From positions 77,020-141,019 of the forward strand of contig CAZAYU010000002.1 in NCBI GenBank assembly GCA_964489445.1: a stretch of 64,000 nt of DNA. The letters are read 5' to 3'. The notes beneath the pieces are model-generated. The model worked only from the letters and a program-made list of their open reading frames with translations, ran no database searches and had not been told where the DNA came from. This document shows positions 1 through 21,217 of the stretch, piece by piece. How positions within the stretch are numbered: the first letter of the stretch is position 1; each line of letters starts with the position of its first letter. The stretch is from an uncultured Planctomycetia bacterium (lineage in GTDB: Bacteria > Omnitrophota > Gorgyraeia > Duberdicusellales > 4484-171). The translations under genes were made by a program, and so were the position numbers.

Positions 1-88
1 TAAAGATATAGAAAATGCTTTCACAGAGGATAATTCTTTAAAAAGAGTAAGTGTTATTCTCTCGACTCGGAAAAAACCAAGTAGTATT

Positions 89-3000
89 TTGTCACGGGTT
101 AACGGAAAAGAGGAAGAACATTTGCCTAGCTGGCAGGATAGGTTTTCTGCTCTCAAAGGGTTCTTGGAAAAAGAAGGTATCTCTCAGGATATTTGCATTG
201 CAGTTTCTTATGCTGTCTGTTCCAAGATTGTGGATTCTCGAAAATTAAAATATCGATTACGTTTTTTTCAAAAGTACGGATTCTTAACAGAAAAAGAATG
301 CCGTCTTTTGATTAAAAGAAAATACATTGATTGGGAAAGATTTTCTCAAAGGATAGCGGAAGAGTATAGAGTATTGATAAACTCTTCACAGAAGTTTACG
401 GAGAAACAAGTTAAACTTATTTTAAAAAGAGGGTTTTCTGAGCAAGCAGCATGTGATTTAAAAAATAAATATCGAAAGTATGGAATTACAAAGAGTGAGC
501 TTGTTCAGTCAATGTGTAATCAGGATCCGGAAAAATACTTAGGTAAATTAATCATGCCTCGCGCTAGAGCAGATGGGAATAGAATGATATTTCGAAGGCA
601 TCTGGAAGATGAAATAGGAGTATTTTTCCTTCCAGCGGAAAGAAACGAAATAATAGACGGATTATTAGAATTTATTACTGGGAGGAAATGGGAGCACAAT
701 GAAGTTTTCGTTCGTAAATTAAATAAATTAACCCAATGTAACACTATAACCTTAAAGCAGAAAAATATGCTACTGAATATTGGAAGATATGCTTCCGAAG
801 CGTTTACCAATCAATTTAAACCTAAAGATGTTGCTCAACGGATAAAACAAAATATGATTTTGTATTTGGATCCATCATTGCAGAATGGACTGGTTACTCC
901 CCGGCAAGCTTTATTTTTAGTAGTTAGGGGGTATTTATATCCGGAATTTAAAAGCATTATGAATGAATACTGCTTGACTAAAACTGAGTTGTTGGAGGTT
1001 ATTCATGGGTATAGCAATCCGGGAGAAATTTTGGAAAAACTAAGGCCACAAAGGATTAATTATTTGCATCGAAAAACAAAATTGCCTGAATATTTCATAA
1101 AAATAATATTGATTAAACGGGGCAGCAAGATTACAGATGGATATTTAGAGGATTTGCTTAAAGAAGCAAAATACCTAATTAAAACATACGCAATACCTGT
1201 ATACATTGCTTTGAATTGGTATATCCGAGGCAATAATGCACAAAGCTTTAAGCAAAGGGTAGTCGGTTTAAGCCGACAGGAAGGGCTTCCGATTAGGTTG
1301 ACTTATCACTTATTTTTTCAAAGGGAGCTAACACAGAAAGATATCAATCGAAATATTATTATGCTATCTGAATCCTGTGGGAGAATTCTTCAGGAGAAAA
1401 AGGTGGCATATCAAAAGATGCAGGAGTCGTTATCTGCTTTAGAAAAAGATATTTATCGGGATGTAAGTTTTGTTCAGGCCGTGATTATCCGAAAAAAAAT
1501 CGAACAATTAGTAAAAGCACGTCCGAATAATGAAATATTAAATGGCTTAAAAAAAGAATTTGGGGTTAAGTATCATATACTACAGGAATTAGTAGATTTA
1601 ATTTTTAATCAACTTAAAAATGATAATTTAAGTGAGGCGATTTATTCTGGGGCAAGAAATAAAGGAGTGTCTCTGGCGGTGTATAGAATAGTAGAAGCAA
1701 GAAAGGAAATAAAAAAAATTGCCAAGACTGCTAGCAAAGAAATAACTGATTTTCAAAATAATAATTTAATGTATTTATACCAAAAACGTAAAAAAGCCAG
1801 TGTGAGAGAAAATTCAGAATTGAAAAAATGTTTGTCTGAAAAGATTGTTCAAAGAATATCTGGGAAGCTTGGAGGAGTTTTAGAAGAAAGTGTAATTATA
1901 GAATTAGGAGAAAAGATTATTTCCGGATTTTTTAATACTAAAAATGGAAAAGTAAAAAATAAATTAGAGCGTTTTAGAGAAAATGGATCATTGACTTTGC
2001 AACAATGTGCGCTTGTTGAGTCACACAGGTGGCAGGTGTTTAGTCGGGAAAACTGGCTTGACCGATTATCGGATAATTTAGTATTTGATGTCTCTAGGCT
2101 TAAAAGAGAGTTTGATTTTTCTGATAGTTTGGTAATAAATATTATTCTTAAAGGATATTATTACTCTTGGATTTGCGAGTTATATAGGCAATACCCTCAT
2201 CTTAAAAAATCCTTTTTAGACAGAATGTTTCGTGCTGAATTTCCGGAAAAATATCTTTTATGTCATTGTGGGCCATTGGATAGAGAGGTTAAAGCTGCTC
2301 AAGTTTTTATGAAAGAGCTGACCAAAAGTACTGATTTTTCTCTACCGAAGCAGGTTGAGGAGCTGTTAAGTCAGGATTATACATATCGGCAGTTAGTAGT
2401 TTTGGTATTGAATGCCAGGGTTAACCATTCAGAGTCAAATATTAGTTTAGGTAAGCAAGCGGCTCGTTATTTTGTTCAAGCGCATCTTTCAATTGCTGAA
2501 GAAATTGCTAAGGAATATCGTTATCGGTATTGTAGCAGGCAATGTATTCAAGAGGGAACAACGGCTTTATACGAAGCCTTAAAAAGTTATACTCCGGATT
2601 ATCAAAGCGAAAACGGATTTCCGGAACATGCGCGTAAGTTTATAAAACAGCGATATGAACAAATATTAAAAATGACAAGGAAGGATTATCAAAACCAAAA
2701 TTACCATTCTGTGAGTATTGATGCGCCGGCATATGGTGATTCTAGCCGAATTACAAAGCAGGAGATATTGGGTGTTAATGACATAGCCTCTGGTTTTGGA
2801 AATAATCTTCATCAGCTTAATCCGGAAGATAACATTATTTTTTCTGAAAAAGCTCAAAATGGATCAATAAAGCAAAAAGAAGAAAGGGAAGACCTAAGGA
2901 AAAATATTTTTTCAGATGTTGCAAGAAAACTTTATCAGCAAAAAAATATTTCTTCTGCTTGGTTAGAAATTTTATTAAGTGAAATTAATCAATATTCCGG

Positions 3001-6000
3001 AGATTCGGAAGATCTTTCTCAGCAATTTAATGTCGACGTTGAGGAGGTCGAGAAATGCCTTAAAATTGGGTTAGCAAAAATAGGTGAGCATATTATTGCT
3101 CATCCAGAGTTGATTGCACATTTTTCTATTTCTGCTGTTTCAGAAGTTAAACAGAAAAAAGGAACTTTGCAGTATGAGGAAAAAAAGGGTTCTAGTTCAG
3201 CATTAAAGGTAGTTGAACATTTATGTTGCAATGAAGAATTTATTGAAATTACTAACTGTGCTTCTTATCGTCATTTACGTTCTCCGCCTAAAAAGATAGT
3301 TATCCCTGAATGCAGCTACAGTCTCGCCAGATTTTTTCGCTTGTCTTTTGGCAGGGCAAGCTCGCCAGTAAATCAAGACAAAAATATTGCTTTCAAATAT
3401 AATCAAAATAATCCGGAGTCTATCATCGCTGAAACTTTCCTTGCTCGAATGTACGGAAACATAAATCCTGATAGAAAGGCTAAGATACTCTGGCAGCTAT
3501 TATTAGGAGCGGGGATAATTCCTTTTTGGCAGACAGCAAAGATAATATCAAAAACTATTATTTTTATGGTTTGGGCTACTTTTTGTTTCAAGTGGAACCA
3601 AAAATACAGAGAGCAGTTTTTTAAGACAGTCAAGGAAGACCTTAGTTGCCGCTATAGTAAGACTGCGTATATCGGCAATCAGACGACCGCGTGTAGAGTA
3701 GATTTTAAAGAAAGAATACAGAATAGAAAAATTGTGGAAGAGTTTACTCAATGCATAAGAAAAATATTCTCCTCCGTTATATTTATCTGGTGTTTTACAA
3801 CATTTTCTTGTTTGATGAAATTTGTTGATACGCTTGATGGACGTGCTGTAATAGTGTATTGTTTTGGTCTTCCAGAAATGGTGTTGTTTTTTGTTATATT
3901 GCCTGCGGCTGCATATTTATTCCTGATTAATGTGATCTATAATATCGACGTAATAGTTAGAGATTTAGAAAAATCTTTAGCTATAGAAACATCTATTATT
4001 TCGAGAAAATCTTCTTCTAATTGCGATAACAGTTCTAGCTCGTCGATTGAACGTAGATATACATCAAGTTTAAGAGAAATTAGCCATATTGGTGAAATTA
4101 TCAGGGAGTTAATCCGAAAAGATCCCTTTGCGGCTTTTTCATTTAATAATGAAAAACTTTGGATGCAAATTGTTCCGGATAAGAGTAATTGTCTGCGGTA
4201 TGTAATTTATCCTGAGGTTGGAGAGGTGCGTAGGCTATTTTTTCTAAGGGCGTTAAACAAACCGGTCGGTGATCCCTTTGTCGCTCCTTCTGGATCGTTA
4301 GGCCAAATTATTTTTTTCCTGAATAATTCTATTGAAATAGAAAAATTAGCCAGTGGTATGTTTTTGGAGGTGCAATCAAACATATGGCTGCGGCGGATGA
4401 ATCCAGAAATGCGTAATCTCCTTTTGCGCTGGATTATTTCGGCAGTTCAGCATATTATTTCAGCCGCGCATAAAGAGGGAATTTACGATTTTTACGCTTC
4501 GACTCCAAAATTTATAAAGAGTATATATTTAAGAGACGGCATAAGACTGGACCAAGGAAATTTAAAGAAACACTATCAACGGCCGTTTAGGCGACAATGG
4601 CAGAAAAAGGATATAGAAGTTTTAGATAAATATGTTAACTATACAGATAGTAATATTGTTCCACTTTGGTACTACAACAGAGAAAGTCGTTTATTAAAAA
4701 GCAGTAGCTCAATAAGTATTATTTCTGGCAAAGAACCGGAACCAATATCGGCAGTAAAGATAAATACTAACCCATTGACATCTAGCCAACAGGTATACCT
4801 AGAGAATGCTGCTAAAGGAAGAAAAATTCCTAGTTATTACTTAAATGTTATTTTTGAAAAATTCCGCAAATTAGAATTGATTAGTTCAGAAAGAGAATCT
4901 TGGGATAGATGCAGGCCTATTGTTCGGCTAGAAGCATTAAGAGTAGCCATGGCGAACCATTGGATAAAGCCGGGTAATATTAGCTTTTTAGAAGAAGTTA
5001 TCCGAAACCCGTTATCTCCGAAACAGCAAGATATTTTAGAGTTAATTTTAGATTTAGAACTTGATGTTCGGAATTTTTCACGAACGTACCAGATATTAGC
5101 TGATAAATTTAAAATAACTGTAAATTCTGTGGCGAATAACCATGTCAGACAGATATACAAAAAATTAAAAGTTAATTCTGGTTTAATTAAATCTGGATGG
5201 GGCCTAGTTGAGGCAGCAAAAATAGCAGCAGAAAGTGGATATATAAAATATGATGTTTCTAAATATGAAAGATTTGTGCAGAAATATTCTAAAATAGAAT
5301 TAACTGTTGGAGAGAAAAAATGTTTGATAAAGCAGATTTTTGGTATCGATAGTGAATATGTAAGGTCGCGTGACGCAAAGTTGATGAATGCAATGAGTAG
5401 CTGTAACCGGAGAATACGCAACAAATTGGGCATTCGCAAGAAATGGAATCGAGGCGATAGCATGATGCCGGTAGCAGATTATGTTTTACGGCAAGATATG
5501 ATTTCTACTGAAGACATAGTTACAGTTGCCGTGAGCTTGCCGTACATTACCAAAATATTTAGTGTAGATTTCCTGAAAGTTTATTTTTCTAGAAAACATT
5601 CTGCCAGAGATATAAAGGAAGCTTTTAAAGTATTTTTACCCGGTAATGTCGAAAAAACGAAGAAAATTATTCTTTTTTATATTTGCAATGTAAAACAAAT
5701 TATATATCCACTAACGTCTGGATGTTTAGAAGCTTTAGAAGATGCCTTGAGAGTGAATTTACCGGCAACAGTAAAACAATTTGGGCCGACAGTGTTTTTT
5801 GGTTTATTCGGCGAGGGAGAAAAAGATCTCGGAGCATTGGTAAGAAAATTAATAAGTAAGCGCGTTCATGATTTTAATCCGGGAGATCTTTCTTGCAGGA
5901 AGGAAAAGCTTGCTAGAGTATCAATAAAAGAACCGGAAGAAGAACCAGAGGAAGAATTTAAAACCGCTAATTCCGCTAACGTTGAGGAAATCAAAATGTT

Positions 6001-9000
6001 AACTAAATTTTTTAGTCCAGAGGAATTTGACCCCAACCTTCTCTATAAGGTTGGCGAAAAAATATTAGGAAACGGTTTTCTTTTGCCTGTTTTGGAAGAG
6101 AAAATTGATTTTATAATGGGTTTGCTTTTAGATCGTAACCGAAGGCATGATTATGTTTATGCTTTTTTAATTTTAAAAAAGGCAATGGAGGACCATCCTC
6201 AAAGAACCGCAGAGTTGTTTATTCCGCATCTCTTTTCTAAACAGTTGCCAATTAATAATGACGGGCTACCGTTTATTGAAAAGTTATATAAAGAAAGAAA
6301 TGGCTGGTTTGATTATTTTATTCATAAGCTATGGCCATATTTATCACAACCGTTAAAAAATGATATAAGCCAATTACAGAATCACAAGTCTTTATCATCT
6401 ACGGGTGTTGATTATTGGGGCATGAGCAGCTCATCTATAAATTACAAAAATTATAACGATTATGTTTGCACAAACAAAGAAACTATTGTTGGTTCTTCAG
6501 CGATAAATAATCGGCCGGTTAAATCTTTTACCGAATTAAATAAAGAGGAAGTTTTTAAATTAGTACCTAAAGGGTCCCGGCGGCACACAAGGAATGTTAT
6601 TCGACTAGTTGGGCAAATAGGAAATGTAGTCGGTTTAGCTCAGAAAGAGTTATGTTGTCTAAAATATCTTGCTTGCGCACATGATATTGGCAAGGGAAAC
6701 AAAAATATTTCTCACCTTTTCTTATCTTCAGAAATTTGGGACAAAAATGCAAAAGAAAGAAGGCTAGCCAGAAAACATTCTCGGTATACAGTTGTTATAC
6801 TGGAAAAACATTTTGGCATTCAGCTTCCACATGGCGAACGGCAGATTATTTTTTGGCATAATCGTTTGAAGGCGATTAATTGGAAATGGGTATCTTCGCA
6901 GAATAAGTTATTTTGGTTGATTTTAATCATCGCTGATATTATTGATGGTAGCATTGATACTTCAAGAAAACATAAGGTTGGAAAAAATCTTAAATTTGAT
7001 CCGGCTATGACGCTAAAGCGAATAAGGATAGTGGTTGGTGATTTGCTATCTGCCGATGACAATGTTAAAAAAATATATAATGTAGTTGAACGTTTATGTT
7101 TCAATGAAGAATTTATCGAGACAGCCAACCGCGCTTCCTATCGTCATTTACGTTCTCCGCCTGAAGAAATAGCTATTCCCAAATGTGGTGATAGCGTTAG
7201 TAAATCTGTTTATTCGGGCTGGAAGAATGGAAAGGCTGTTTCTAGCTCTGCAGTGTTTAGAGGAGTAAATTATTCTGCCAGCAAGATAGATATTAAGGAA
7301 ATAAGTATACCTAATATCCGTAATCATCATTATCAAATAATACTTAAAAAAACTAATAATGGTAATTGGCCGGGAATATGCAAGGTTTGGGTTAATTCAA
7401 CCTCAGTAGGTGACCTTGAATATTGGGTGCGTGAAACTCTAGTAGTTCTTAGACGTTTTTATATTAAAAGGAAATATCGAGGGGAGGGTATAGGCCAAAC
7501 GGTTATGCATTTTATTGCTGATTTAGTGTGGGAGAAAAATATTCGTTTTAATACTAAGACATTACTGGGGATAAGCGCTGTTACTGATGCCGTTCTCGTG
7601 CGTACCTTCTGCAATGCTATTGAAAATATTGTTTACGGCTCATTAGACGATCCTAAATCGACAGACAAAGAAGATCTTTTATCTAAAGTAAATAGTGGAG
7701 GAGGATTAAATTTTAGAGGCGATCCGATTGGCTTAAGCGCTCTTTATCCTAAAGAAAAAGAATGGCCTATTTTTTTTGAAAGCGCATCTTCAGTTGTAAA
7801 TGCTGACTATTGTAGCTCTAGTTTGCCGGTTAGTATATCGGATGAATTAATCACAGAAATTAAAGTTTTACGCAGAAGGGATGAGCCAGGTTACTCTAAT
7901 TTTATGCAATTACTGGATAAGGCCAACAGTTATGATATTAAGGCTGCCATAGACAGGATTGAACCTTATTTAAGAAGTTATTTTATATTGTTATTATCTA
8001 AAAAAGATCCTGAAAAATTAATTTTAAAATCAATTTCTCCCATGGATATTCTCCCTCTTGAAAAGATTGCTGATATTTTATCGATAGATTCTAGCGCCTT
8101 CATGATAGCCCAGTCGGCAGATGAATACAAAAATAGTATTTCTTTATATATCCCGGGTGAAACTAAATTGGTTAAGATATTTATCAGGTCGCTTAGTATG
8201 TTGCCGATTACAATATCTCGGTTTGCAGACAATAGGGAGCCGCTACCGCCATATATTAATGAATTTTTAGGCCGGAAAGGCGTCAAGAGCTGCATAATAC
8301 ATGACGGCTATCGCACAAGAGTACAACTGTTTTATGGATTGACTTGGAGATTTTCTATAGATTATTTTGAACTTGATTCTTCTCTTTGGGGCAAAGGTAT
8401 CGGCGATATTTTGTATGTGAATCTTGAACGCTACGCAAAGGAATGCGGGTTTACTGTTATATCGGTTGAAGGAGGATGTCCGGTAGAGCCGAAAAGTGAG
8501 GTGTTTTTTGCTAGGCAGGGATTCTCAGAATCTTTTGCGATTAGAGATGAAGGCGGAAGAGAAAGCAATCCCCAAATGACATTTATTGTGTTTAAAAAAA
8601 TAATTTCTAGCGCATTTGCAGATAACTCTAGCTCTCCAATGGATAAAGAAGATTATAAGGATTTTGGTCAAAAACAAGGATCAAAAGAACAAGCCGCTAA
8701 TGAAAAAGAAGAAATTGAAAATGCTTTGAGAAAAACAAGAGTCAGGAATGAAGCTGCAAAGATTTTTGGTATCTCTCCTGCTCAATTTTACCGGAAAATT
8801 AAAAAACATGGCATTGATCTAAACACATTTTCGAAAAAAAAGGGACGGCTTTCTGATATTACAAAAGAAAAAATGGAGGAATTGATTATCAGACACAAAG
8901 GTTCTGTTGCCGCTATAGCTTATGAATTGAAGGTGTCTGGCACAGCGGTTTCTCTCTTATTAAAAAAATATGGACAAGCAGATTGGGCCAAGGAACAAAG

Positions 9001-12000
9001 AAAAAAATATGGCAAAATAATAAATAAAAAACGTTTTCAAATGATGATGTCTTCCTGGAAAAAGAATAGAAAAACTGCGGTAAGAGAAGTAACCAGAATT
9101 TGCTTTGGTGAAGAGAATATCAACGCGGATGATGAAATATTTTTTTGGGAAAAAGAAAATCGGATAAAAGTGACAAAAATATTGGATGCTGTAGTAAAGG
9201 ATATTATCGGAGAAGGGTTTCATGTGATACCCGAAATCAGGAGGAACAAATTTATTTTGGCTTGTGGCTTAAGAGAGTTATTGGTAAGCGCTAAAGCGGC
9301 TTCTTCCCGGGAACTATTAAAGGAAGCTGGATTGATTCCGGCTGGAAACTGTTTAGATGGCTTAGAAGTAAGTAGCTCTGCGTTGTTTAATTTTGGTTGG
9401 AGGTTGGCTTTACCGGTAAGTAGAGCGATTAATCATTATTCGCTTAAATGCTTTAGAGTAAAGCAGCCAAAAAGCAATTTAATAGTTATTGATGTGAAGA
9501 TAGGAAAGGAAAAAAAAGGATGCATAAAGTCATTAAGTAGCAAGCGTTTGATTTTGTCTGCCGGAGAAAGTTTGCCATTTAAGTCCTGTGAAATAATAGA
9601 TGTTAAAAGTATTGAATTTATCGAAAAAGATAGCCGGAAAAAATCCAGCTCTTCACTTAAAACAATAGGATTTGGTTCATCTGATTTATCGTTTGACAGG
9701 TGTCACAAAGAAGCACAAAGATTAATTAAGACTTTGCAATATAAAGGCATACCCTGGACAGATGCTTATATGCGGGTATTGCCGGAGGTAGAAAAGGTTA
9801 CGAAAAAATATCCGGATAAATGGTTTATATCAGCAATTAATTTGGGTATAGCAATTACAAAAGAAGGTCTTCTTCCTTGCCCAATATTATATTACGGTGT
9901 GGGGCTAGCAGTTATAAGCTCTAATGCAAGCTTTGACCAGTATAAACAAAATCTTAATTGTCTAAAATATTGGGCGGAAGAAATAAGCCGAATTGTTTGG
10001 AAAAATGTAAATGAGGAAGGTGAGAAATATAATTTTAGACAGATAAGCACAACAAAGAGTAAAAATATAATTTGGAGAAATACTGCTTATAGGAAAATAG
10101 ATGATTCGCTAAAAAGTATTGAAGTCAATGGAATAACCAGTTCAAGGCGTTTACGAACTGCGTTGGATGAGTCTTCTGGCTATTCAATAAATTGGCCTTC
10201 CAGTTGTCTAGTTACGTTTTGTAGTGATCAATCCGAGTATAAAAATTACATAATACGTTTTTTATCTAGATGTTTGGGTAATGGGCATTCGAAGAATGTA
10301 AATGTAAAGGAAAGATTGGAAGAGAATGTTTCAAGTTCATCGGTAGAGATAGTATTTAATTCACCAGATTGGGAGGCCATTAGGAATACAGAGCTTTTTT
10401 CTGTAGTTGTGCCTATTTCCGGTCGTACCGATGATTACAATATATTTTATCAAAAGACATATGATTGGCTATTATATTTTTTCCGATTATCTTTGTTTAA
10501 AGAGCAAATCGCAGATTTATTGTCATATACTTTGGCGGAGATATTTCACGATGCAGTAAGAAAAAATTTAGATTTGCGTGCAGCGTATTCACTTTCCGGA
10601 TTTTTTGTTTTGGATAATAGTACAGAATGCGCACCGGTATATTTAAATGCGGAATTTATTCAAAAAGCAAATAGTCAGACTGATTATCAATGGTTGCTTT
10701 CAACTCAGAAAGAATATGCAAAACAAGGTCCGGATTATTTATTAAGTGAAAAGATTCAAAAAAACAGACAAGATATTGATGATGATTTTAGGTATGGATT
10801 AGCGCAATTCGCTAGATTAATTTATGAGTTGCCTTGTTGTCTAAAGTATGCGGTAAGCTCTATAGCGCCTTTTAAAACTACAGTAGAATTTACTGTCAAA
10901 ATTATGAATTTACCTGATTTTGTAGAAAAAGATGTTCCAATTTGTACATTGAAAAAAGAAAAATTGCAAAAAGCAAAAGTGTTACTTACGAGCGAATTAT
11001 CAAAATGGAAGAATCAGTTAGACCTAACTTTAGCGTTTAGCGGGCAAGAAAATCGTGAGCATATTTTTTTCCGTAAAGGTTTAATGCAGTTATCAATGAA
11101 AAATCTTATTAGTTTACGGACATTTGAAGAAATTAGAGAGGTATTATTAAGTGCGCATAAGATTATTTTTAAAATACATGAAAATATCATAACTTTACCA
11201 TCTTTATCAGGAAAAGAAAAACTTAAAATTTCTTCAGGACGATTAGCAAATATAAACTTTAACTGTGCATTTTTAAAGCAATGGCTTGGAGAACTTTTTA
11301 AGGAAATAGAGGTTATTGAAAATATTGGTCATCATTCAAACGGAAAAGCTAAAGTAAGAACACTTTTGCCTAAAAAAGTCAGTTCTTCAATTATGAAAGC
11401 AGAGAAAGAAGCTATTACCTCACTGGCGGTTATTTCTTGTTTGACTAGAGGAGAAGAAGAATTATCTTTGTTGGATACCTCCTTTTATTTCCCGCAGTAC
11501 CTGCGAAAAAAAACAAGCGAATTTGTCTATGGTTCAAATAATCCGGTTTCTTCTTCGGCGGTTAAAAGTAATGAATATTTATTTGGCCTCAAAATCATCA
11601 GCATGAAAATTATTTACTCAGAGAACCCGGAAAGTGTTTTAGAACAAATTCTACAGCTTAGCATGCGTTTTGCGGTTGAAGACGGAGAAATGCTGATGAC
11701 AAAAGAGTATATAAAAGATGAGATCGAAAATGATTCCAAAGATTTCAATTTAGCCTTTGTTGATGCCGCCGGAGTAATTATTGGATATCTTTTGACTCAA
11801 GAATCTCCGCGTCATCCCAATGCCTTGTGGTTTACTTTTATGGGAGTAGAGAAGGAACGCAGGAATAAAGGTTTTGCAAAGATGATGATGAAAATCGCCG
11901 CCTTGAAGGCTGTAGAATATAATATAGAAAGGATAAAATTAGGAGTAAGAAAAGAGAATAAAATAGCTATCGCTATGTATGAAAGATGCGGGTTTCAAAG

Positions 12001-15000
12001 AGATCCAATAACTTATTTTAAAAGCGAAAAAGAGGAAATTAATTTCCAAGATTATTCGGAAACGATGAGTAAAAAATATGGTTTTAAAATGAGCTCTCAA
12101 GATAAAATCACAATTGACGGAGTTGGCTATGAATTTGTGGATTTCTCTGCTGTGCCGTCTGAGATAGTAAAAAGTATAATAAACACTTCGTCGTTAGAAT
12201 TAAACGAGGAATTTAAGGAGTCGCGTATTATTGCCTTTGGTTTAAATTATAACCCTAGATTAACCAGCTTCCTGCGGGTTATAAGCACATTAATTGAAGT
12301 GTATGGGCGCTTTAAGGAAAAAGACATCAGTTTACGAATCGTTCGCCTCTGGGATGAACAGGAGTTGAATTTTGAGAAACCGATAGAGTGCTATACTTTT
12401 CAAATTTCTCATAGTGAGCAAATTAAATTGGTTATCGAGAGCAAAACAAGATCTAAGGAAGCAGTTGTTGAGGCAATGAATATCGTTGCCTGTCTTCTGA
12501 CGCAACCGGAATTTGAAAACGGATTAAACTGTCGTAATGCTCCTGAAAAACAAAAATTCGATGAGCTCTTCCATAAATTTAGAATAATTTTGTCTTTGGA
12601 AGGATCGTCGCCTGATTCTCCTCTTTCTGTTGCTACCGCTGCCTCACCGAAGAGCACTAGCTCGCCTGTTAATAAAAATTGGCGCCAGAAACTTATAAAT
12701 GCCGCAGATGATTTAAGAGTATTAAAATTGGAAGGTATTATTTTAAGCCGGCTTAGTGATTTCGAAAGAACAATACTGCAAAAGCGTACGGAATTTCCTC
12801 CGGTAGATAGAAAAAATGTGGCTGCTGAACTAGGGTATCCAGTATGGAAGGTAGCCAATATTGAGCGAATGCTTTCGGTAAAGGTTCCGGCACTGTTAAA
12901 ATTATGGAAACATGCCGATGCAGTCTTAATAGCATTATTCAACGGCTGTAGGGTAAATATTAATTATATCGGTATAAAAAATATAGATTTGCTCAGCCGG
13001 ATGATTGAACCTGCTGTTCGTTTCAGTAAGAAAGAGACCGAATTAATGAAATTTTTGTGTCAGATTATCGAATACAGAGAACAAAAAAGCAGCGAAATTA
13101 ATAGTCTTATAGTAATCAAAAGAGAAATGTCTTTAGGAATTTTTCAAGTTAAACCATCTACGTGGAGAATATTTGTTCAGAACTTCCGTGGTACAGATGA
13201 TCCTCTTTCTTCATCATCTCTGGTTTTTAGTTCCAGTTTGTCGACGGAAATAGAAGAAGTAATTGCACAGACATTAACGTCTGTCGCCTCGCCGGTGAGT
13301 ATAAGTGAAAAAAGAATCAGGAAAGTAAGAATATTTTTAAAAGAGCACCTTAATCCTAACATCATCGGTATTATAGTACACGGCTCTACAGCTAGAGGTG
13401 ATGCCTTAGAAGAAAGCGATTTTGATTTTGGTTTAATTAAAATAAACGGCGATTTTACTTATGAATTGACTCAGGCGGACCTAGATTTTCACAGAGGGCT
13501 TTTAAGATGTTTGGCACCTGTGAAGGTAGATAACCAGCTTAAACCTCTAATTTGGAAAGGAGAGGAGGCTTTTAATAAATTTGTAAGTTTATATTTTTTG
13601 GAACGCAAATACGCTACTGCCATTGAAGATGTACCGTGGGTTAATAAGCTGGAAGCTTTTATTAAAAGTTACCGCATAATTGCGAGAAACAAAGAGCTGG
13701 AAAATATAATTTATCAAAGAATAGAGGATGCTAGAAAATCGATTATGAAATCTGTACGAAATAAAGAAAATAAAACAGCTTTTACCAGCTCGTCAATAGA
13801 TGGTAGCAAGAGGCAAAGGATTAATAATCTGGCTGAATATAAGAGGCTAATGAAATTGAATGCACAGTTGTTAGTACGAAGTAACACTGTTTCTTCGAGC
13901 TTTCCGGCGGAAAAAGATGGAGAGGTAGAACGCTCTTTGATAAGTGTGGATTCTTTTATGGATTTTACAGGGCCGGTTTATTATCCTGCCAGCGAATTGG
14001 ATTTAGAAAGTATGGTTTGGTTGGCGAGATTATTTCCAAAACTTAAGATGTTGATGTATGTCGATGTTTTGGATCCGGATGAAATGAATGCAGCAACTGT
14101 TTTTAAACCAGAGGAAGATGACGGTGAAGGTGTTAGTGGAGCATTTCGATATTATGGGCCCGACGATATGTCATTATTGCAGCGTCAGATGCAAAATAAA
14201 CTATCTCAATTTCAATATCATAATGAGGCTATTATTGATTACAAAAATACTGGGGTAGATATTATTTCGGTTGAAGACATGGAATTGCTACTTAAGGTAT
14301 CTTTTAAAAGAAACATCAAAAAAGCCCCGTGGCTAAATAGCAGAGTTATAGAAATTAATTTTTTAGTTTGTGATATTTTTGATTACAAAAAAATATTTAA
14401 CGTAATTTATGTTAACTATCCCGGATATTGTGGTGGCTTAGCAAGAGTAGAAGAATTTTGGGTATTAATGCGTAAGCAGATTTCTGAGCAGGGATGTTTG
14501 TTAGAGACAAATATACATCGTAAAACACCTAAAACTAGAGTTTTTAAGAAGAAACTTTTTTCTAAGACGGACCAGATAAAATTAACCCAATATCCGCGCA
14601 TAGATGTTTTACGACCGATAAAAATTATCTCTGCCTCGCCGCTAAACTACTCGAACTTAGCATTGGGTTCAGTAAGAGAATCCAGGGTTAGCTCGACAAT
14701 AAGTCATTGTTCCAAAGTTGTTTCGATAAGAAAATTAACGCTTGCTGATTTTGATGTGTCTAATTACTCATCTTCTTCTGTATCCGCAAGTTCTAATTTA
14801 GTGACAAGTAGTATTCTCGGTAATTTATACAATATGAGAAACATGTTCATTGCGTATCAGGATATTCTTAGTAGTTCCGGGAAGATGATTCAAGCGTGGG
14901 TTAATGAGTCAATAGCTGCTATGTATAAGCCGGATATTAGGTCAAAAGAGATCAGAAGAGCAAAAAAGATTACAGAGCTAATGCCTGATCCTCAAAGAAT

Positions 15001-15991
15001 AAGTCTTACGGACAATGGAAGATATAACTGGTTTGGTTGGTTTAATCTTGAGAATATTGATGTTTGGCGGATTTTAGGGTTTGGATGTATTGATCCTTGT
15101 CAATTTTGTCTACAGGAAAATGTAAAATCAAAAGCAGTTAATTATCCATTACCGGTGATTATCAAGTTGGTAATTGAAGAGAACCCAGCAGCGCAATTTA
15201 ATTTTTGGCATAATAATGAACCGTTTCAGTGGTATGATCCGTTTTTTAAGAGTTCCTTAGACGGACTAATTGAATTTACTGTACGACGATATCCGCATAT
15301 GTTTTTTTATGTGACAACAAGAGGCTTTGAATTGAGTGATTGTCGTTCAGAAAAGACTGCCAGAAATATTTGCAATTTGGTAAATGAATATCCGCAACTA
15401 AAGAATCGTATTTTTAATGTTTCTTTTCATCTTTGCTTAGGAACTCTTAAGTATGACATTATCCGCGCGATAGCATATCGGGGTAAACAGCCAGAAATAT
15501 TTAATCAAGTCCGAAAAAATTATATTGAAAGGTATAGAAATATCTTTTCAGCTTTAAACAGTGCAATTCAAAGAATTTATATTTATCGAGACGGTCCAAA
15601 TAATTTTTTAGGAGAAATTAATTGGGATATTTTTGCTAAAGCAACTCAAGAGATAGGGAGGCACGAATGGCAGGTAGAGTCACATACGATAGGCAATCAT
15701 GATTCTTATAATAAAAGCAGGGATTTTATCAACAGGCTTAAGCAGGCATTTAATGGCAAATATGTTAGGGCTTCTTATATGAGAATACAGAACCGGGATT
15801 TTATTCCAGAGGATAACGTTCCTCAGATAGAGACATTCAAGAGTGGAAAAGTTATTATTCGCAGTAATGGGGAGGAAATTGCAAGATCGACATTAGTTGA
15901 CTTAGATTATCATCCAGAAGCTGCGCTGAGAATTAATGGGTGCGGATTAGGTGTTGAGAGCAATTATGGTGCACCAATAAATGTTCAGTAA
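89..15991 (+). CDS. Giant multidomain protein of at least 5300 aa. The 5' end is uncertain. The first in-frame start-like codon is TTG at 89; a TTG at 122 has a GAGGA Shine-Dalgarno 7 nt upstream. The same frame is open, with no stop, back to window position 2, so the gene may begin upstream of the window.
   Basis: Single stop-free frame of 15.9 kb in an AT-rich sequence, which is impossible by chance. Codon and composition usage match the neighbouring genes. Multiple enzyme and HTH motifs are recognisable (listed as separate features). No N-terminal signal peptide. Confidence 0.85.
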   Translation: MSRVNGKEEEHLPSWQDRFSALKGFLEKEGISQDICIAVSYAVCSKIVDSRKLKYRLRFFQKYGFLTEKECRLLIKRKYIDWERFSQRIAEEYRVLINSSQKFTEKQVKLILKRGFSEQAACDLKNKYRKYGITKSELVQSMCNQDPEKYLGKLIMPRARADGNRMIFRRHLEDEIGVFFLPAERNEIIDGLLEFITGRKWEHNEVFVRKLNKLTQCNTITLKQKNMLLNIGRYASEAFTNQFKPKDVAQRIKQNMILYLDPSLQNGLVTPRQALFLVVRGYLYPEFKSIMNEYCLTKTELLEVIHGYSNPGEILEKLRPQRINYLHRKTKLPEYFIKIILIKRGSKITDGYLEDLLKEAKYLIKTYAIPVYIALNWYIRGNNAQSFKQRVVGLSRQEGLPIRLTYHLFFQRELTQKDINRNIIMLSESCGRILQEKKVAYQKMQESLSALEKDIYRDVSFVQAVIIRKKIEQLVKARPNNEILNGLKKEFGVKYHILQELVDLIFNQLKNDNLSEAIYSGARNKGVSLAVYRIVEARKEIKKIAKTASKEITDFQNNNLMYLYQKRKKASVRENSELKKCLSEKIVQRISGKLGGVLEESVIIELGEKIISGFFNTKNGKVKNKLERFRENGSLTLQQCALVESHRWQVFSRENWLDRLSDNLVFDVSRLKREFDFSDSLVINIILKGYYYSWICELYRQYPHLKKSFLDRMFRAEFPEKYLLCHCGPLDREVKAAQVFMKELTKSTDFSLPKQVEELLSQDYTYRQLVVLVLNARVNHSESNISLGKQAARYFVQAHLSIAEEIAKEYRYRYCSRQCIQEGTTALYEALKSYTPDYQSENGFPEHARKFIKQRYEQILKMTRKDYQNQNYHSVSIDAPAYGDSSRITKQEILGVNDIASGFGNNLHQLNPEDNIIFSEKAQNGSIKQKEEREDLRKNIFSDVARKLYQQKNISSAWLEILLSEINQYSGDSEDLSQQFNVDVEEVEKCLKIGLAKIGEHIIAHPELIAHFSISAVSEVKQKKGTLQYEEKKGSSSALKVVEHLCCNEEFIEITNCASYRHLRSPPKKIVIPECSYSLARFFRLSFGRASSPVNQDKNIAFKYNQNNPESIIAETFLARMYGNINPDRKAKILWQLLLGAGIIPFWQTAKIISKTIIFMVWATFCFKWNQKYREQFFKTVKEDLSCRYSKTAYIGNQTTACRVDFKERIQNRKIVEEFTQCIRKIFSSVIFIWCFTTFSCLMKFVDTLDGRAVIVYCFGLPEMVLFFVILPAAAYLFLINVIYNIDVIVRDLEKSLAIETSIISRKSSSNCDNSSSSSIERRYTSSLREISHIGEIIRELIRKDPFAAFSFNNEKLWMQIVPDKSNCLRYVIYPEVGEVRRLFFLRALNKPVGDPFVAPSGSLGQIIFFLNNSIEIEKLASGMFLEVQSNIWLRRMNPEMRNLLLRWIISAVQHIISAAHKEGIYDFYASTPKFIKSIYLRDGIRLDQGNLKKHYQRPFRRQWQKKDIEVLDKYVNYTDSNIVPLWYYNRESRLLKSSSSISIISGKEPEPISAVKINTNPLTSSQQVYLENAAKGRKIPSYYLNVIFEKFRKLELISSERESWDRCRPIVRLEALRVAMANHWIKPGNISFLEEVIRNPLSPKQQDILELILDLELDVRNFSRTYQILADKFKITVNSVANNHVRQIYKKLKVNSGLIKSGWGLVEAAKIAAESGYIKYDVSKYERFVQKYSKIELTVGEKKCLIKQIFGIDSEYVRSRDAKLMNAMSSCNRRIRNKLGIRKKWNRGDSMMPVADYVLRQDMISTEDIVTVAVSLPYITKIFSVDFLKVYFSRKHSARDIKEAFKVFLPGNVEKTKKIILFYICNVKQIIYPLTSGCLEALEDALRVNLPATVKQFGPTVFFGLFGEGEKDLGALVRKLISKRVHDFNPGDLSCRKEKLARVSIKEPEEEPEEEFKTANSANVEEIKMLTKFFSPEEFDPNLLYKVGEKILGNGFLLPVLEEKIDFIMGLLLDRNRRHDYVYAFLILKKAMEDHPQRTAELFIPHLFSKQLPINNDGLPFIEKLYKERNGWFDYFIHKLWPYLSQPLKNDISQLQNHKSLSSTGVDYWGMSSSSINYKNYNDYVCTNKETIVGSSAINNRPVKSFTELNKEEVFKLVPKGSRRHTRNVIRLVGQIGNVVGLAQKELCCLKYLACAHDIGKGNKNISHLFLSSEIWDKNAKERRLARKHSRYTVVILEKHFGIQLPHGERQIIFWHNRLKAINWKWVSSQNKLFWLILIIADIIDGSIDTSRKHKVGKNLKFDPAMTLKRIRIVVGDLLSADDNVKKIYNVVERLCFNEEFIETANRASYRHLRSPPEEIAIPKCGDSVSKSVYSGWKNGKAVSSSAVFRGVNYSASKIDIKEISIPNIRNHHYQIILKKTNNGNWPGICKVWVNSTSVGDLEYWVRETLVVLRRFYIKRKYRGEGIGQTVMHFIADLVWEKNIRFNTKTLLGISAVTDAVLVRTFCNAIENIVYGSLDDPKSTDKEDLLSKVNSGGGLNFRGDPIGLSALYPKEKEWPIFFESASSVVNADYCSSSLPVSISDELITEIKVLRRRDEPGYSNFMQLLDKANSYDIKAAIDRIEPYLRSYFILLLSKKDPEKLILKSISPMDILPLEKIADILSIDSSAFMIAQSADEYKNSISLYIPGETKLVKIFIRSLSMLPITISRFADNREPLPPYINEFLGRKGVKSCIIHDGYRTRVQLFYGLTWRFSIDYFELDSSLWGKGIGDILYVNLERYAKECGFTVISVEGGCPVEPKSEVFFARQGFSESFAIRDEGGRESNPQMTFIVFKKIISSAFADNSSSPMDKEDYKDFGQKQGSKEQAANEKEEIENALRKTRVRNEAAKIFGISPAQFYRKIKKHGIDLNTFSKKKGRLSDITKEKMEELIIRHKGSVAAIAYELKVSGTAVSLLLKKYGQADWAKEQRKKYGKIINKKRFQMMMSSWKKNRKTAVREVTRICFGEENINADDEIFFWEKENRIKVTKILDAVVKDIIGEGFHVIPEIRRNKFILACGLRELLVSAKAASSRELLKEAGLIPAGNCLDGLEVSSSALFNFGWRLALPVSRAINHYSLKCFRVKQPKSNLIVIDVKIGKEKKGCIKSLSSKRLILSAGESLPFKSCEIIDVKSIEFIEKDSRKKSSSSLKTIGFGSSDLSFDRCHKEAQRLIKTLQYKGIPWTDAYMRVLPEVEKVTKKYPDKWFISAINLGIAITKEGLLPCPILYYGVGLAVISSNASFDQYKQNLNCLKYWAEEISRIVWKNVNEEGEKYNFRQISTTKSKNIIWRNTAYRKIDDSLKSIEVNGITSSRRLRTALDESSGYSINWPSSCLVTFCSDQSEYKNYIIRFLSRCLGNGHSKNVNVKERLEENVSSSSVEIVFNSPDWEAIRNTELFSVVVPISGRTDDYNIFYQKTYDWLLYFFRLSLFKEQIADLLSYTLAEIFHDAVRKNLDLRAAYSLSGFFVLDNSTECAPVYLNAEFIQKANSQTDYQWLLSTQKEYAKQGPDYLLSEKIQKNRQDIDDDFRYGLAQFARLIYELPCCLKYAVSSIAPFKTTVEFTVKIMNLPDFVEKDVPICTLKKEKLQKAKVLLTSELSKWKNQLDLTLAFSGQENREHIFFRKGLMQLSMKNLISLRTFEEIREVLLSAHKIIFKIHENIITLPSLSGKEKLKISSGRLANINFNCAFLKQWLGELFKEIEVIENIGHHSNGKAKVRTLLPKKVSSSIMKAEKEAITSLAVISCLTRGEEELSLLDTSFYFPQYLRKKTSEFVYGSNNPVSSSAVKSNEYLFGLKIISMKIIYSENPESVLEQILQLSMRFAVEDGEMLMTKEYIKDEIENDSKDFNLAFVDAAGVIIGYLLTQESPRHPNALWFTFMGVEKERRNKGFAKMMMKIAALKAVEYNIERIKLGVRKENKIAIAMYERCGFQRDPITYFKSEKEEINFQDYSETMSKKYGFKMSSQDKITIDGVGYEFVDFSAVPSEIVKSIINTSSLELNEEFKESRIIAFGLNYNPRLTSFLRVISTLIEVYGRFKEKDISLRIVRLWDEQELNFEKPIECYTFQISHSEQIKLVIESKTRSKEAVVEAMNIVACLLTQPEFENGLNCRNAPEKQKFDELFHKFRIILSLEGSSPDSPLSVATAASPKSTSSPVNKNWRQKLINAADDLRVLKLEGIILSRLSDFERTILQKRTEFPPVDRKNVAAELGYPVWKVANIERMLSVKVPALLKLWKHADAVLIALFNGCRVNINYIGIKNIDLLSRMIEPAVRFSKKETELMKFLCQIIEYREQKSSEINSLIVIKREMSLGIFQVKPSTWRIFVQNFRGTDDPLSSSSLVFSSSLSTEIEEVIAQTLTSVASPVSISEKRIRKVRIFLKEHLNPNIIGIIVHGSTARGDALEESDFDFGLIKINGDFTYELTQADLDFHRGLLRCLAPVKVDNQLKPLIWKGEEAFNKFVSLYFLERKYATAIEDVPWVNKLEAFIKSYRIIARNKELENIIYQRIEDARKSIMKSVRNKENKTAFTSSSIDGSKRQRINNLAEYKRLMKLNAQLLVRSNTVSSSFPAEKDGEVERSLISVDSFMDFTGPVYYPASELDLESMVWLARLFPKLKMLMYVDVLDPDEMNAATVFKPEEDDGEGVSGAFRYYGPDDMSLLQRQMQNKLSQFQYHNEAIIDYKNTGVDIISVEDMELLLKVSFKRNIKKAPWLNSRVIEINFLVCDIFDYKKIFNVIYVNYPGYCGGLARVEEFWVLMRKQISEQGCLLETNIHRKTPKTRVFKKKLFSKTDQIKLTQYPRIDVLRPIKIISASPLNYSNLALGSVRESRVSSTISHCSKVVSIRKLTLADFDVSNYSSSSVSASSNLVTSSILGNLYNMRNMFIAYQDILSSSGKMIQAWVNESIAAMYKPDIRSKEIRRAKKITELMPDPQRISLTDNGRYNWFGWFNLENIDVWRILGFGCIDPCQFCLQENVKSKAVNYPLPVIIKLVIEENPAAQFNFWHNNEPFQWYDPFFKSSLDGLIEFTVRRYPHMFFYVTTRGFELSDCRSEKTARNICNLVNEYPQLKNRIFNVSFHLCLGTLKYDIIRAIAYRGKQPEIFNQVRKNYIERYRNIFSALNSAIQRIYIYRDGPNNFLGEINWDIFAKATQEIGRHEWQVESHTIGNHDSYNKSRDFINRLKQAFNGKYVRASYMRIQNRDFIPEDNVPQIETFKSGKVIIRSNGEEIARSTLVDLDYHPEAALRINGCGLGVESNYGAPINVQ
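2530..2700 (+). other. Sigma-70 region-2-like segment inside the giant ORF (CIQEGTTALYEALKSYTPDYQSENGFPEHARKFIKQRYEQIL).
   Basis: Resembles the sigma-70 r2 consensus (LIQEGNxGLMKAVEKFDPxxGxxFSTYAxxWIRQAI) in spacing and residue classes. Motif-level only. Confidence 0.35.
3208..3313 (+). repeat. Copy A of a 35-aa intragenic motif (VVEHLCCNEEFIEITNCASYRHLRSPPKKIVIPEC).
   Basis: About 80% nucleotide identity over roughly 105 nt to copy B at 7082..7186. The same reading frame is conserved. Confidence 0.85.
3480..3960 (+). other. Cluster of 3-4 hydrophobic, putative transmembrane, segments inside the giant ORF, about aa 1131-1291.
   Basis: Stretches IIFMVWATFCFKW, IFSSVIFIWCFTTFSCLM and AVIVYCFGLPEMVLFFVILPAAAYLFLINVIY are each 13-30 consecutive hydrophobic residues. 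Confidence 0.5.
5012..5180 (+). other. LuxR/GerE-type helix-turn-helix module inside the giant ORF (LSPKQQDILELILDLELDVRNFSRTYQILADKFKITVNSVANNHVRQIYKKLKV).
   Basis: Matches the LuxR-type pattern LSxRExxVLxLxxxGxSxxEIAxxLxISxxTVxxHxxxIxxKL. Confidence 0.45.
6590..6900 (+). other. HD-domain phosphohydrolase-like module inside the giant ORF. The HD dyad is at nt 6680..6685 (H2198-D2199).
   Basis: RRHTRNVIRLVGQIG...LKYLACAHDIGK has the HD-superfamily signature of a first His followed by the xxHDIGK motif. His and Asp residues further downstream fit the metal-ligand positions. Confidence 0.5.
7082..7186 (+). repeat. Copy B of the 35-aa intragenic motif (VVERLCFNEEFIETANRASYRHLRSPPEEIAIPKC).
   Basis: Paired with copy A at 3208..3313. 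The two copies are 3874 nt apart. Confidence 0.85.
7447..7640 (+). other. GNAT acetyltransferase-like core number 1 inside the giant ORF (RRFYIKRKYRGEGIGQTVMHF...).
   Basis: Matches the acetyl-CoA-binding motif A pattern R-x-x-G-x-G/A (YRGEGIGQTVM). Confidence 0.45.
8368..8500 (+). other. GNAT acetyltransferase-like core number 2 inside the giant ORF (LWGKGIGDILYVNLERYAKECGFTVISVE).
   Basis: WGKGIGDIL followed by an aromatic/acidic and GF segment is typical of GNAT motifs A and B. Confidence 0.4.
8707..8975 (+). other. Two tandem Fis/NtrC-type HTH motifs inside the giant ORF (NALRKTRVRNEAAKIFGISPAQFYRKIKKHGIDL and EELIIRHKGSVAAIAYELKVSGTAVSLLLKKYG).
   Basis: Both fit the C-terminal HTH of sigma-54 activators and Fis (AL..T.GN...AA..LGISR.TLYRKLKKYGI). 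Confidence 0.5.
11790..12010 (+). other. GNAT acetyltransferase-like core number 3 inside the giant ORF (VEKERRNKGFAKMMMKIAALKAVEYNIERIKLGVRKENKIAIAMYERCGFQ).
   Basis: RRNKGFAKMMM (motif A) followed by AIAMYERCGF (motif B, YxxxGF) is classic GNAT spacing. Confidence 0.5.
12737..12900 (+). other. Sigma-70 region-4-like HTH inside the giant ORF (LSDFERTILQKRTEFPPVDRKNVAAELGYPVWKVANIERMLSVKV).
   Basis: Resembles the r4 pattern LxxRERxVLxLRF...TLxEVGxxxGVTRERIRQIExKAL. Confidence 0.3.
13361..13445 (+). other. Minimal Pol-beta-type nucleotidyltransferase motif inside the giant ORF (IIGIIVHGSTARGDALEESDFDFGLI).
   Basis: hG[GS]x9-13Dh[DE]h signature: HGSTARGDALEESDFDF. Confidence 0.5.
15078..15988 (+). 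other. C-terminal radical-SAM-like segment of the giant ORF. Cys codons lie at nt 15086, 15098 and 15107 (C5000-x3-C5004-x2-C5007).
   Basis: GFGCIDPCQFC is a CxxxCxxC cluster. It is followed by WHNNEPFQW (GGEP-like) and YVTTRGF (TNG-like) at the expected spacing for a radical SAM core. Confidence 0.4.
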
Positions 15992-19488: not shown

Positions 19489-20442
19489 TTGAAAAGTGGA
19501 AAGGTAGATAAATATTTATGGGATGCAAGAATGATTAATAGCATTTATAAGTTATTGGAAGTAAAAGACTTAAGTGTGCAATTTTCCCAGGGTAAAAAAA
19601 ATGTTAAAGCAGTAGACGGGGTGAATTTTTTTCTTCAAAAAGGAGTTATTACCGCTTTAGCCGGTGAGAGTGGATGTGGGAAAACTACACTGGCAAAAAC
19701 AATTTTAAAATTTCATAAACCGGCTGGAGGAAAGATATACCTAAATAGTAGAGACATTACATTAAAAAGTAATGAGCGGTATTTAAGAAAAAATATTCAA
19801 GTTGTTTTTCAAAATCCGTTTTCTAGCCTTGATTTCCGGTATTCTATTTTTTCCTCTCTTTATGAATCTTTATCCGTATTTAAAAAGATAAAAAAAGATC
19901 AAGCCGAAGAAATTATTGTAAAATCGTTAAACGATGTAGAATTAGATAAAGGGATAATGCTTCGCTATCCGCAGCAATTAAGCGGAGGACAGGTACAAAG
20001 AGTGTGTATTGCCCGTGCTTTAATCAACAAGCCTTCTTTAGTCATTCTAGACGAGCCGACATCAAGCTTAGATGTAACTACTGCTTCCAAAATTGTTAGG
20101 TTGCTTGCGAAAATACAACAGGATTCAGGCGTTACTTTTTTATTTATTTCACATAACTTGCGGCTTTTAAAGAAAGTTTCTGATTTTTGTTTTATTATGT
20201 ATGCGGGTAAGGTTGTAGAGTTTGGTCCTAAGCAGCTGGTCTATGATAATCCGCTTCATCCTTATACTAAACTTTTGATGGAAGCCTCTTACTATAGATT
20301 AAAACGTTTTAAAGATTCAAAGGTTTCTTTAAATGGATGTTCTTTTTCTTCGCGCTGCACCTACCAAGAGGATAAATGCTCAAAGGAATCCAACTTCAAG
20401 GAGGTAGAGCCAGGTCATTTTGTCTCTTGCTGTCTTTTTTAA
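19489..20442 (+). CDS. Oligopeptide/dipeptide ABC transporter ATPase, OppF-like, with a Cys-rich C-terminal extension. The start may be the internal ATG near 19531.
   Basis: Walker A GESGCGKTT, LSGGQVQR, ILDEPTSSLD. The C-terminus contains CSFSSRCTYQEDKCS...CC. Confidence 0.8.
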   Translation: MKSGKVDKYLWDARMINSIYKLLEVKDLSVQFSQGKKNVKAVDGVNFFLQKGVITALAGESGCGKTTLAKTILKFHKPAGGKIYLNSRDITLKSNERYLRKNIQVVFQNPFSSLDFRYSIFSSLYESLSVFKKIKKDQAEEIIVKSLNDVELDKGIMLRYPQQLSGGQVQRVCIARALINKPSLVILDEPTSSLDVTTASKIVRLLAKIQQDSGVTFLFISHNLRLLKKVSDFCFIMYAGKVVEFGPKQLVYDNPLHPYTKLLMEASYYRLKRFKDSKVSLNGCSFSSRCTYQEDKCSKESNFKEVEPGHFVSCCLF

Positions 20443-20566: not shown

Positions 20567-21199
20567 ATGAGATTAGAATTTTTTGAAAACATTAATATTC
20601 CTGCGCCTAAAGAGAAGATTTATTTGCGTTTGGGATTTTCCAAGCAAAATACACAATTATCCACCGATGAATTCCTAAAGTATGAAGCAGATATTAATTC
20701 GGCCTTAGAAAAAATAAGTTTAAAAGGCTCGTTGGTGATTCTGGATATAAAAAATAATGATGGCAAAAAAATTATGCTAGAAGGAAATATTGGAATAGAA
20801 AGTAGTCGTTTGGCTAAATTTTTAGGTGAATGCTCCGAGCTTATTTTTATCGGGATAACTGCTGGAAGTGATATAATAAAAATGATAAATATCGAGCAAA
20901 TTAGTAAAAATTTAAGCAAAGCGGTAGTCCTTGATGCAGTAGCTAGTGAGATGGTTGATTTTGCTTTGGGTTGGGTTGCCGGACGTAAAGCAAAAGATCT
21001 AAGACGACAAAACAAATTTATTACTGAGCAAAGAATGTCAGCAGGGTATGGTGATTTTAATATCCAATATCAAAAAGTTATTTGTGAATTATTAAAATTA
21101 GACAGATTAGGCGTGCAATTAACGCAGAGCTATATTCTTGATCCTGAGAAGTCGGTTACTGCAGTCTATGGAGTTAAACAAGAACATATTAATAAATAA
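20567..21199 (+). CDS. Stand-alone activation (AdoMet-binding/reactivation) domain of cobalamin-dependent methionine synthase.
   Basis: About 210 aa with the RMSAGYGDF (RxxPGYGD-like) motif, encoded immediately upstream of a MetH core that lacks this domain. Confidence 0.55.
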   Translation: MRLEFFENINIPAPKEKIYLRLGFSKQNTQLSTDEFLKYEADINSALEKISLKGSLVILDIKNNDGKKIMLEGNIGIESSRLAKFLGECSELIFIGITAGSDIIKMINIEQISKNLSKAVVLDAVASEMVDFALGWVAGRKAKDLRRQNKFITEQRMSAGYGDFNIQYQKVICELLKLDRLGVQLTQSYILDPEKSVTAVYGVKQEHINK

Positions 21200-21217
21200 G
21201 GGTGAGTGTAGAGTATT

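Follow-up and report, generated by a model that had tools for sequence, protein, structure and literature searches.

A probable, highly divergent radical SAM domain at the C terminus of a giant Omnitrophota protein

The window analyzed here, a 64,000-nucleotide stretch of an uncultured Omnitrophota bacterium (assembly GCA_964489445.1, contig CAZAYU010000002.1, positions 77,020 to 141,019 of the forward strand), opens inside a giant gene whose last domain is probably a divergent radical S-adenosylmethionine (SAM) module. The C-terminal part of the giant open reading frame (ORF; 2..15991; here and below all features are on the + strand) comprises 5,329 codons, is stop-free from nt 2, is open at the window edge, and ends with a stop codon at 15989-15991. 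ORF residues (e.g., C5000) are counted from a TTG at nt 89; the 29 codons upstream of it are open and coding-like. An earlier note, made from the sequence alone, described a 5300-aa protein, but this length covers only the part within the window. In public assemblies, matched through their identical downstream PilZ gene, the giant gene is called at 19,512, 19,273, and 19,280 aa, and the protein is therefore at least 19,512 aa long. Coordinate arithmetic with contig coordinates and gene lengths places one boundary of all three calls at a contig end. Because each call ends where its contig ends, the true gene is longer still and the assemblies break inside it. At a protein length of 19.5 kaa (thousand amino acids) or more, the window part makes up a C-terminal quarter or less.

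The last ∼400 aa of the ORF form a discrete conserved domain. This terminal domain of 403 aa (domain 1-403, ORF residues 4898-5300; 14780..15988) was delimited with a HMMER family, an alignment (A1), and AlphaFold2; Ser runs at nt 14768 and 14870 precede it. An exhaustive HMMER search of 1.84 billion cluster representatives returned 38 cluster proteins at E ≤ 1e-3, 33 of them at E ≤ 1e-10. These 38 clusters, defined at 50% identity and previously without annotation, constitute the family. Alignment A1 holds 31 sequences with 20-38% identity to the window copy, and fractions of 31 given below refer to it. A word-indexed protein search with the last 400 aa as query found no match, and a search of this kind with the family profile recovered only the protein P0036.

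Members of the family occur either inside giant proteins or as stand-alone proteins of ∼380-440 aa. The giant carriers are 2-5 kaa or more, many are probably fragments, and the domain is N-terminal, internal, or C-terminal in them. The genes of P0007, P0010, and P0018 have in-frame stops just upstream and are thus genuine stand-alone genes. P0018 is annotated in a Candidatus Margulisiibacteriota metagenome-assembled genome (MAG) and P0012 in Candidatus Omnitrophota; the stand-alone P0018 therefore extends the family beyond Omnitrophota and beyond giant proteins. A search with a six-sequence sub-alignment found two genome loci and one metagenome locus. Both genome loci are from Candidatus Omnitrophota MAGs, and one of them, of 20.5 kb, consists of one uninterrupted frame of 6,836 aa or more. 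The metagenome locus L012 has two domain copies back to back (7700-10800). The first lies at the end of a giant ORF that is at least 3,119 aa long (stop at ∼9359), and a more divergent copy opens a second giant ORF, whose length is at least 2,370 aa.

The most conserved feature of the domain is a G-C-x2-P-C-x-[H/F]-C motif at 15083..15109. Its cysteine codons (15086-88, 15098-100, and 15107-09) encode GCIDPCQFC, within GFGCIDPCQFC, as the earlier note had read them, and the residues C103, C107, and C110 (C5000, C5004, and C5007 of the ORF) are the proposed ligands of a [4Fe-4S] cluster. All three are invariant in 31 of 31 homologues and no fourth cysteine is conserved in the alignment. A lack of conservation of the cysteines in orthologues had been set beforehand as a refuting result, and the alignment brings no such refutation. 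G102 is kept in 30/31 sequences and P106 in 29/31, and the residue before the third cysteine is H or F in 23/31. Every giant homologue examined has one CX3CX2C motif, and it is the same one. In the window, the motif is the sole CxxxCxxC among ORFs of at least 150 aa, and no canonical radical SAM gene was found elsewhere.

A cysteine pattern of this kind could have arisen by chance if the end of this very long ORF were non-functional or degenerate. Its expectation is 0.02 per protein of the same composition, and 37 of 2000 shuffles, or ∼2%, contained it in a protein this size. Against a chance origin, the motif and ∼20 other positions are kept in the 31 homologues despite their low identity, including stand-alone genes in other phyla, and the fold prediction is confident. 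We regard chance as extremely improbable, and a degenerate tail is ruled out by the conservation across the homologues.

Other conserved positions extend over the whole domain. W87, F88, D153, and P154 are, like the three cysteines, invariant, and G102, P106, F155, G182, S215, F216, H217, L218, Y248, and F316 are conserved in at least 90% of sequences. In the model, an N-terminal helical subdomain (domain 3-65; 14786..14974; assigned by DSSP) carries the motif RMxxMFxAYxxxLSxxG, in which Y26, L30, and G34 are at least 90% conserved. The family-specific NWxxWF motif (15029..15043), in which W84 is kept in 29/31 sequences and W87 and F88 in all, stands just before the first predicted strand. At the other end, alignment and model delimit a small C-terminal beta subdomain (domain 349-375; 15824..15904) with the pattern YPxV...GxVxV...LDxLxP.

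Between these flanks, the cysteine cluster is followed by NNEP and then TTRG, in the order that was claimed from the sequence alone, and then by SFHL. The distance from the last cysteine to WHNNEPFQW had been given as about 25 residues and needs correction, as its W is 33 residues past that cysteine; FNFWHNNEPFQWYDPFF begins 30 residues past it, with YVTTRGF and NVSFHL further downstream. From the alignment and the L012 sequence, N-N-E-P (15212..15223), located after the second strand, is a candidate equivalent of the SAM-binding GGE(P) motif. The family consensus at this site is x-N-[D/E/N]-x, with N146 in 22/31 sequences and D or E at position 147 in 24/31. In the divergent L012 copy the motif after this strand is F-S-G-E-S, and its SGE supports the equation of NNEP with GGEP made in the earlier note. 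W-x-D-P-F-F (15230..15247), with invariant D153 and P154, is set by hhalign on GGEPSL of MoaA. T-T-R-G-F (15314..15328) is at the end of the third strand and aligns with TTNGY of MoaA; TTRG corresponds to T179-G182 of the 403-aa domain (nt 15314-15325), and G182 is kept in 29/31 sequences. S-F-H-L (15422..15433) is on the fourth strand, where radical SAM enzymes have their ribose motif; each of its residues is kept in 28-30 of 31 sequences and it may have the corresponding function. The family is new in that it is outside existing models and has its own invariant motifs (NWxxWF, WxDPFF, and SFHL) and flanking subdomains.

With alignment A1 as input, AlphaFold2 models the 403-aa domain with a mean local confidence (pLDDT) of 88.4 and a global score (pTM) of 0.87; a trimmed core scores 90.2 and 0.88. 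According to DSSP, N-terminal helices are followed by a predicted core of six beta/alpha units (domain 96-324; 15065..15751) and then by the small beta subdomain. In domain residues, the strands and helices of the core are β1 100-103, α1 124-134, β2 ∼139-143, α2 160-170, β3 178-180, α3 188-203, β4 212-216, α4 238-262, β5 263-270, α5 276-292, β6 298-303, and α6 311-324. In both models, C103 is at the end of β1 and C107 and C110 are on the following loop; β3 ends in TTRG and β4 carries SFHL. The predicted order of secondary structure is that of the radical SAM partial barrel, and the cysteines are predicted to be at the expected places.

Searches with the predicted structures point, weakly, toward the same superfamily. 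In the PDB, the best probability and template modeling (TM) score were obtained with the radical SAM methylase MgmA (9ccb, probability 0.77, TMq 0.33), and RimO was matched with E values of 0.18-0.25. In BFVD, a collection of predicted viral structures, the single Foldseek match at E ≤ 1e-3 is an MtaB-like radical SAM t6A methylthiotransferase (E = 9.1e-4, probability 1.00, TMq 0.41, 246 columns). Eight further proteins named as radical SAM are in the BFVD top 50, with long alignments, and seven of them have the highest TM values (0.40-0.42).

Profile searches give a similar picture. When members were scanned singly, the radical SAM family PF04055 was the sole Pfam family matched by more than one of them (3/31, best E = 0.011); P0006 matched it at E = 0.024 over profile 3-116. 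The weak NCBIfam matches are mostly to radical SAM models, namely rSAM_YfkAB (two members), MiaB-like-B (E = 3.4e-4), GggB, and MiaB/RimO. The divergent L012 copy matches the family hidden Markov model at E = 8.9e-35 over 283 positions and PF04055 at 31.9 bits, exceeding the gathering score of 29.5 (E = 1.8e-7, residues 111-246, profile 3-133 of 166). The window copy has no match to PF04055 at E ≤ 1 and does not reach the gathering score; by sequence, its link to PF04055 is transitive through the L012 copy rather than direct. In a single-sequence comparison with Escherichia coli MoaA, hhalign aligned 89 columns, from the cysteine motif to TTRG/TTNG, with P = 0.003 and a probability of ∼10%. 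A local hhalign screen compared the family profile with nine E. coli radical SAM proteins and 175 control ORFs; the radical SAM proteins rank 1, 2, 3, 5, 9, 12, and 13 of 184 when the cysteine motif is kept. No radical SAM protein was found among PDB sequences by phmmer and hmmsearch at E ≤ 10. A MoaA-seeded homology search for a diverse radical SAM profile returned relatives of at least 80% identity only, which are unfit for profile-profile work. The sequence link to radical SAM enzymes appears to be real but thin and to be centered on the cluster loop.

The motif, its invariance, the predicted order of secondary structure, and these weak but convergent profile and fold links lead us to consider the terminal domain likely to be a highly divergent module of the radical SAM superfamily at the C terminus of a multi-enzyme giant protein. 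Among radical SAM enzymes, the links are nearest, weakly, to cores of the MiaB/RimO/MtaB type. The assignment made in the earlier note stands as the best available, with a family member that passes PF04055. The note would have given up its reading had there been no profile or structure similarity; similarity exists, but for the window copy it is weak and indirect.

The main rival to a radical SAM module is a non-radical-SAM enzyme with a fold like the triosephosphate isomerase (TIM) barrel, in which the three cysteines, perhaps with the near-invariant His217, bind a metal with a structural or catalytic role (zinc or a non-SAM iron-sulfur cluster) and the CX3CX2C spacing is convergent. Several results weigh against the radical SAM assignment or suit this rival. 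The window copy is without a match in Pfam, NCBIfam, or PDB sequences. Against 350,542 PDB chains, Foldseek had no match at E ≤ 1e-3 with either model, and the lowest E values belong to TIM-barrel epimerases and amidohydrolases, with the barrels of D-tagatose 3-epimerase, allantoinase, Cel6A, and ornithine decarboxylase at the top. The radical SAM profile similarity is wholly lost without the cysteine motif: changing the three cysteines to alanine, or cutting the motif, abolishes the PF04055 match of the L012 copy, and E. coli radical SAM proteins are no longer enriched in the hhalign screen. The canonical glycine-rich GGE and the GxIxGxxE of β5 are not recognizable in the family, and His217 of SFHL is kept in 29/31 sequences. 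With WxDPFF put on GGEPSL by hhalign, the family sequence has two possible registers for the GGE equivalent, at NNEP or at DPFF.

Other results disfavor a non-SAM metal-binding barrel. The L012 copy, a bona fide member of the family, passes the PF04055 threshold over ∼130 profile positions, which extends beyond the motif alone. Radical SAM proteins provide the longest structural alignments and those of highest TM, as well as the sole match at E ≤ 1e-3 (in BFVD). Exactly three invariant cysteines at the end of β1 and on its loop, with G before the first and H or F before the third, are a radical SAM signature. We therefore consider the non-SAM barrel unlikely.

If the domain is a radical SAM module, we infer cluster binding, use of SAM, and radical chemistry. 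C5000, C5004, and C5007 would be the ligands to three irons of a [4Fe-4S] cluster on the loop that follows β1 in a partial beta/alpha barrel, and SAM would chelate the fourth iron of this site-differentiated cluster. One-electron reduction would then cleave SAM to a 5'-deoxyadenosyl radical. The radical would take a hydrogen atom from a substrate, which the two family-specific subdomains, helical at the N terminus and beta at the C terminus, would hold. A variation on this scheme is that the family is a distinct clade derived from radical SAM enzymes, in which the cluster was kept and the SAM pocket remodeled (N-D/E in place of GGE, together with the invariant WxDPFF and SFHL), perhaps for unusual chemistry, possibly in cis on the giant polypeptide or on a product of neighboring modules. 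We consider this variation improbable; if true, the giant protein would be an assembly line with a radical step.

The rest of the window ORF is a mosaic. Between Ser runs are a sigma-70-like region, HD, GNAT, a Fis-type helix-turn-helix, and a nucleotidyltransferase; of the GNAT-type acetyltransferase domains, one is a strong match and one a weak match. The ORF has 19 Ser runs, against 3.1 ± 1.7 expected from shuffles (maximum 11 in 2000). Runs consist of 3-5 Ser, are typically hydrophobic-SSS(S)-hydrophobic, and tend to separate recognizable domains (e.g., at nt 3191, 7241, 9371, 11549, 13208, 14768, and 14870). Ser runs also flank the terminal domain in P0002, the closest homologue. They may be linkers or processing sites. 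Beside Ser runs, a repeat of ∼35-50 aa, ERLC(C/F)NEEFIE(I/T)xNxASYRHLRSPPxxIxIPxC, occurs at ∼3155-3370 and ∼7028-7240.

The sigma-70-like region (∼2350-3080, ORF residues ∼754-998) has weak NCBIfam matches (E = 0.003-0.008). Sigma-70 regions 2, 3, and 4 are clear inside the giant homologue P0002, and region 2 is inside P0009. Such transcription-factor modules are an odd component of giant enzymes. An NTP_transf_2 module (∼13316-13540, ORF residues ∼4410-4483) weakly matches PADLOC PDC-S09 and the MntA antitoxin, which probably reflects generic nucleotidyltransferase similarity. Giant homologues have nothing in common with the window ORF beyond the terminal domain. They otherwise carry HD, methyltransferase, M28 peptidase, sigma-70 region 2 to region 4, HATPase, and DnaJ modules, and no module is constantly beside the terminal domain among them.

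Downstream of the giant gene are genes for PilZ, an Opp-type ABC transporter, a split B12-dependent methionine synthase (MetH), and a class II (D/K/N-type) tRNA synthetase. The split MetH (20567-23614) consists of a 210-aa ORF with a weak MetH activation domain followed by a 798-aa ORF with the Hcy, pterin, and B12 domains. Four stand-alone homologues (P0007, P0018, P0010, and P0004) have no neighboring genes in common. Their neighborhoods include HD, LytR, RsfS, and CARDB in one case; flagellar genes, Mur ligase, and Rho in another; PHP, an FAD oxidoreductase, and PriA in a third; and a faint GNAT match and a phosphoribosyltransferase (PRTase) in the last. P0018 (L014/L015 8001-9245) adjoins a flagellar export and hook cluster and a 638-aa protein without a Pfam match.

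These neighborhoods bear on a role in defense, for which the earlier note had drawn an analogy to prokaryotic viperins (pVips). A viperin-like or other anti-phage radical SAM effector on a giant protein would share with pVips that both would be radical SAM enzymes, and the nucleotidyltransferase domain, which is separate from the terminal domain, weakly matches PDC-S09 (E = 2.4e-5). The analogy is not borne out. Unlike pVips, the terminal domain has no PADLOC match and no defense-island context. The genes downstream of the giant gene are housekeeping genes, stand-alone copies are located among flagellar, Mur ligase, Rho, PriA, and RsfS genes, and the nearest radical SAM relatives are of the MiaB/RimO type, not viperin. 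A defense effector is therefore very unlikely.

Much of the sequence of Omnitrophota giant proteins is unannotated, and a probable radical SAM module annotates one recurring piece of it. It would add to the radical SAM superfamily a small divergent family of 38 clusters with both stand-alone and fused members. For giant "regulatory" proteins with sigma-70-like, HD, GNAT, and nucleotidyltransferase modules, the module suggests oxygen-sensitive radical chemistry too. This is no new kind of biology, as the radical SAM superfamily is extremely diverse and such giants are already on record with canonical members of it.

Compared with the radical SAM core (PF04055), the family is similar in having G-C-x3-C-x-[aromatic/His]-C at the end of β1 and on the next loop of six predicted beta/alpha units, an acidic motif after β2, T-x-G after β3, and a polar motif on β4. 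It differs from the PF04055 set in that neither the window copy nor most members reach any Pfam or NCBIfam threshold, N-[D/E] takes the place of GGE, and YAxRYAN joins NWxxWF, WxDPFF, and SFHL among the invariant motifs of its own. The methylthiotransferases MiaB, RimO, and MtaB are the nearest radical SAM subgroup by weak matches. Unlike them, the domain has no UPF0004 domain with a second three-cysteine cluster and no TRAM detectable with Pfam; in their place are 95 N-terminal residues that are helical and lack conserved cysteines, and the short C-terminal beta subdomain. In the hhalign alignment with MoaA (GTP 3',8-cyclase), (D/E)P and TT(R/N)G are the same distance apart in both, but the domain has no C-terminal auxiliary-cluster domain, and the likeness is undetectable without the cysteine motif.

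Giant proteins of Omnitrophota are the closest precedent for the architecture. PF04055 was reported on 90 Omnitrophota proteins of at least 10,000 aa, among 779 with any Pfam match (bioRxiv 10.64898/2026.06.07.730766), which contradicts the claim in the earlier note that a radical SAM module on a giant protein unrelated to nonribosomal peptide synthesis would be unprecedented. The same study described Omnitrophota giants of a "multi-enzyme" type that carry GNAT, HD, methyltransferase, and HATPase modules and found 137 of 916 proteins of at least 10 kaa to have no match in any database (10.64898/2026.06.07.730766); GNAT domains on such giants were also noted by West-Roberts et al. (bioRxiv 10.1101/2023.11.21.568195). 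Unlike the reported modules, which PF04055 detects, the window copy is invisible to this profile and would thus have counted as unannotated sequence. In its organization, the protein is nonetheless like other Omnitrophota giants, with a probable radical SAM-type module in a mosaic with GNAT, HD, methyltransferase, and similar modules.

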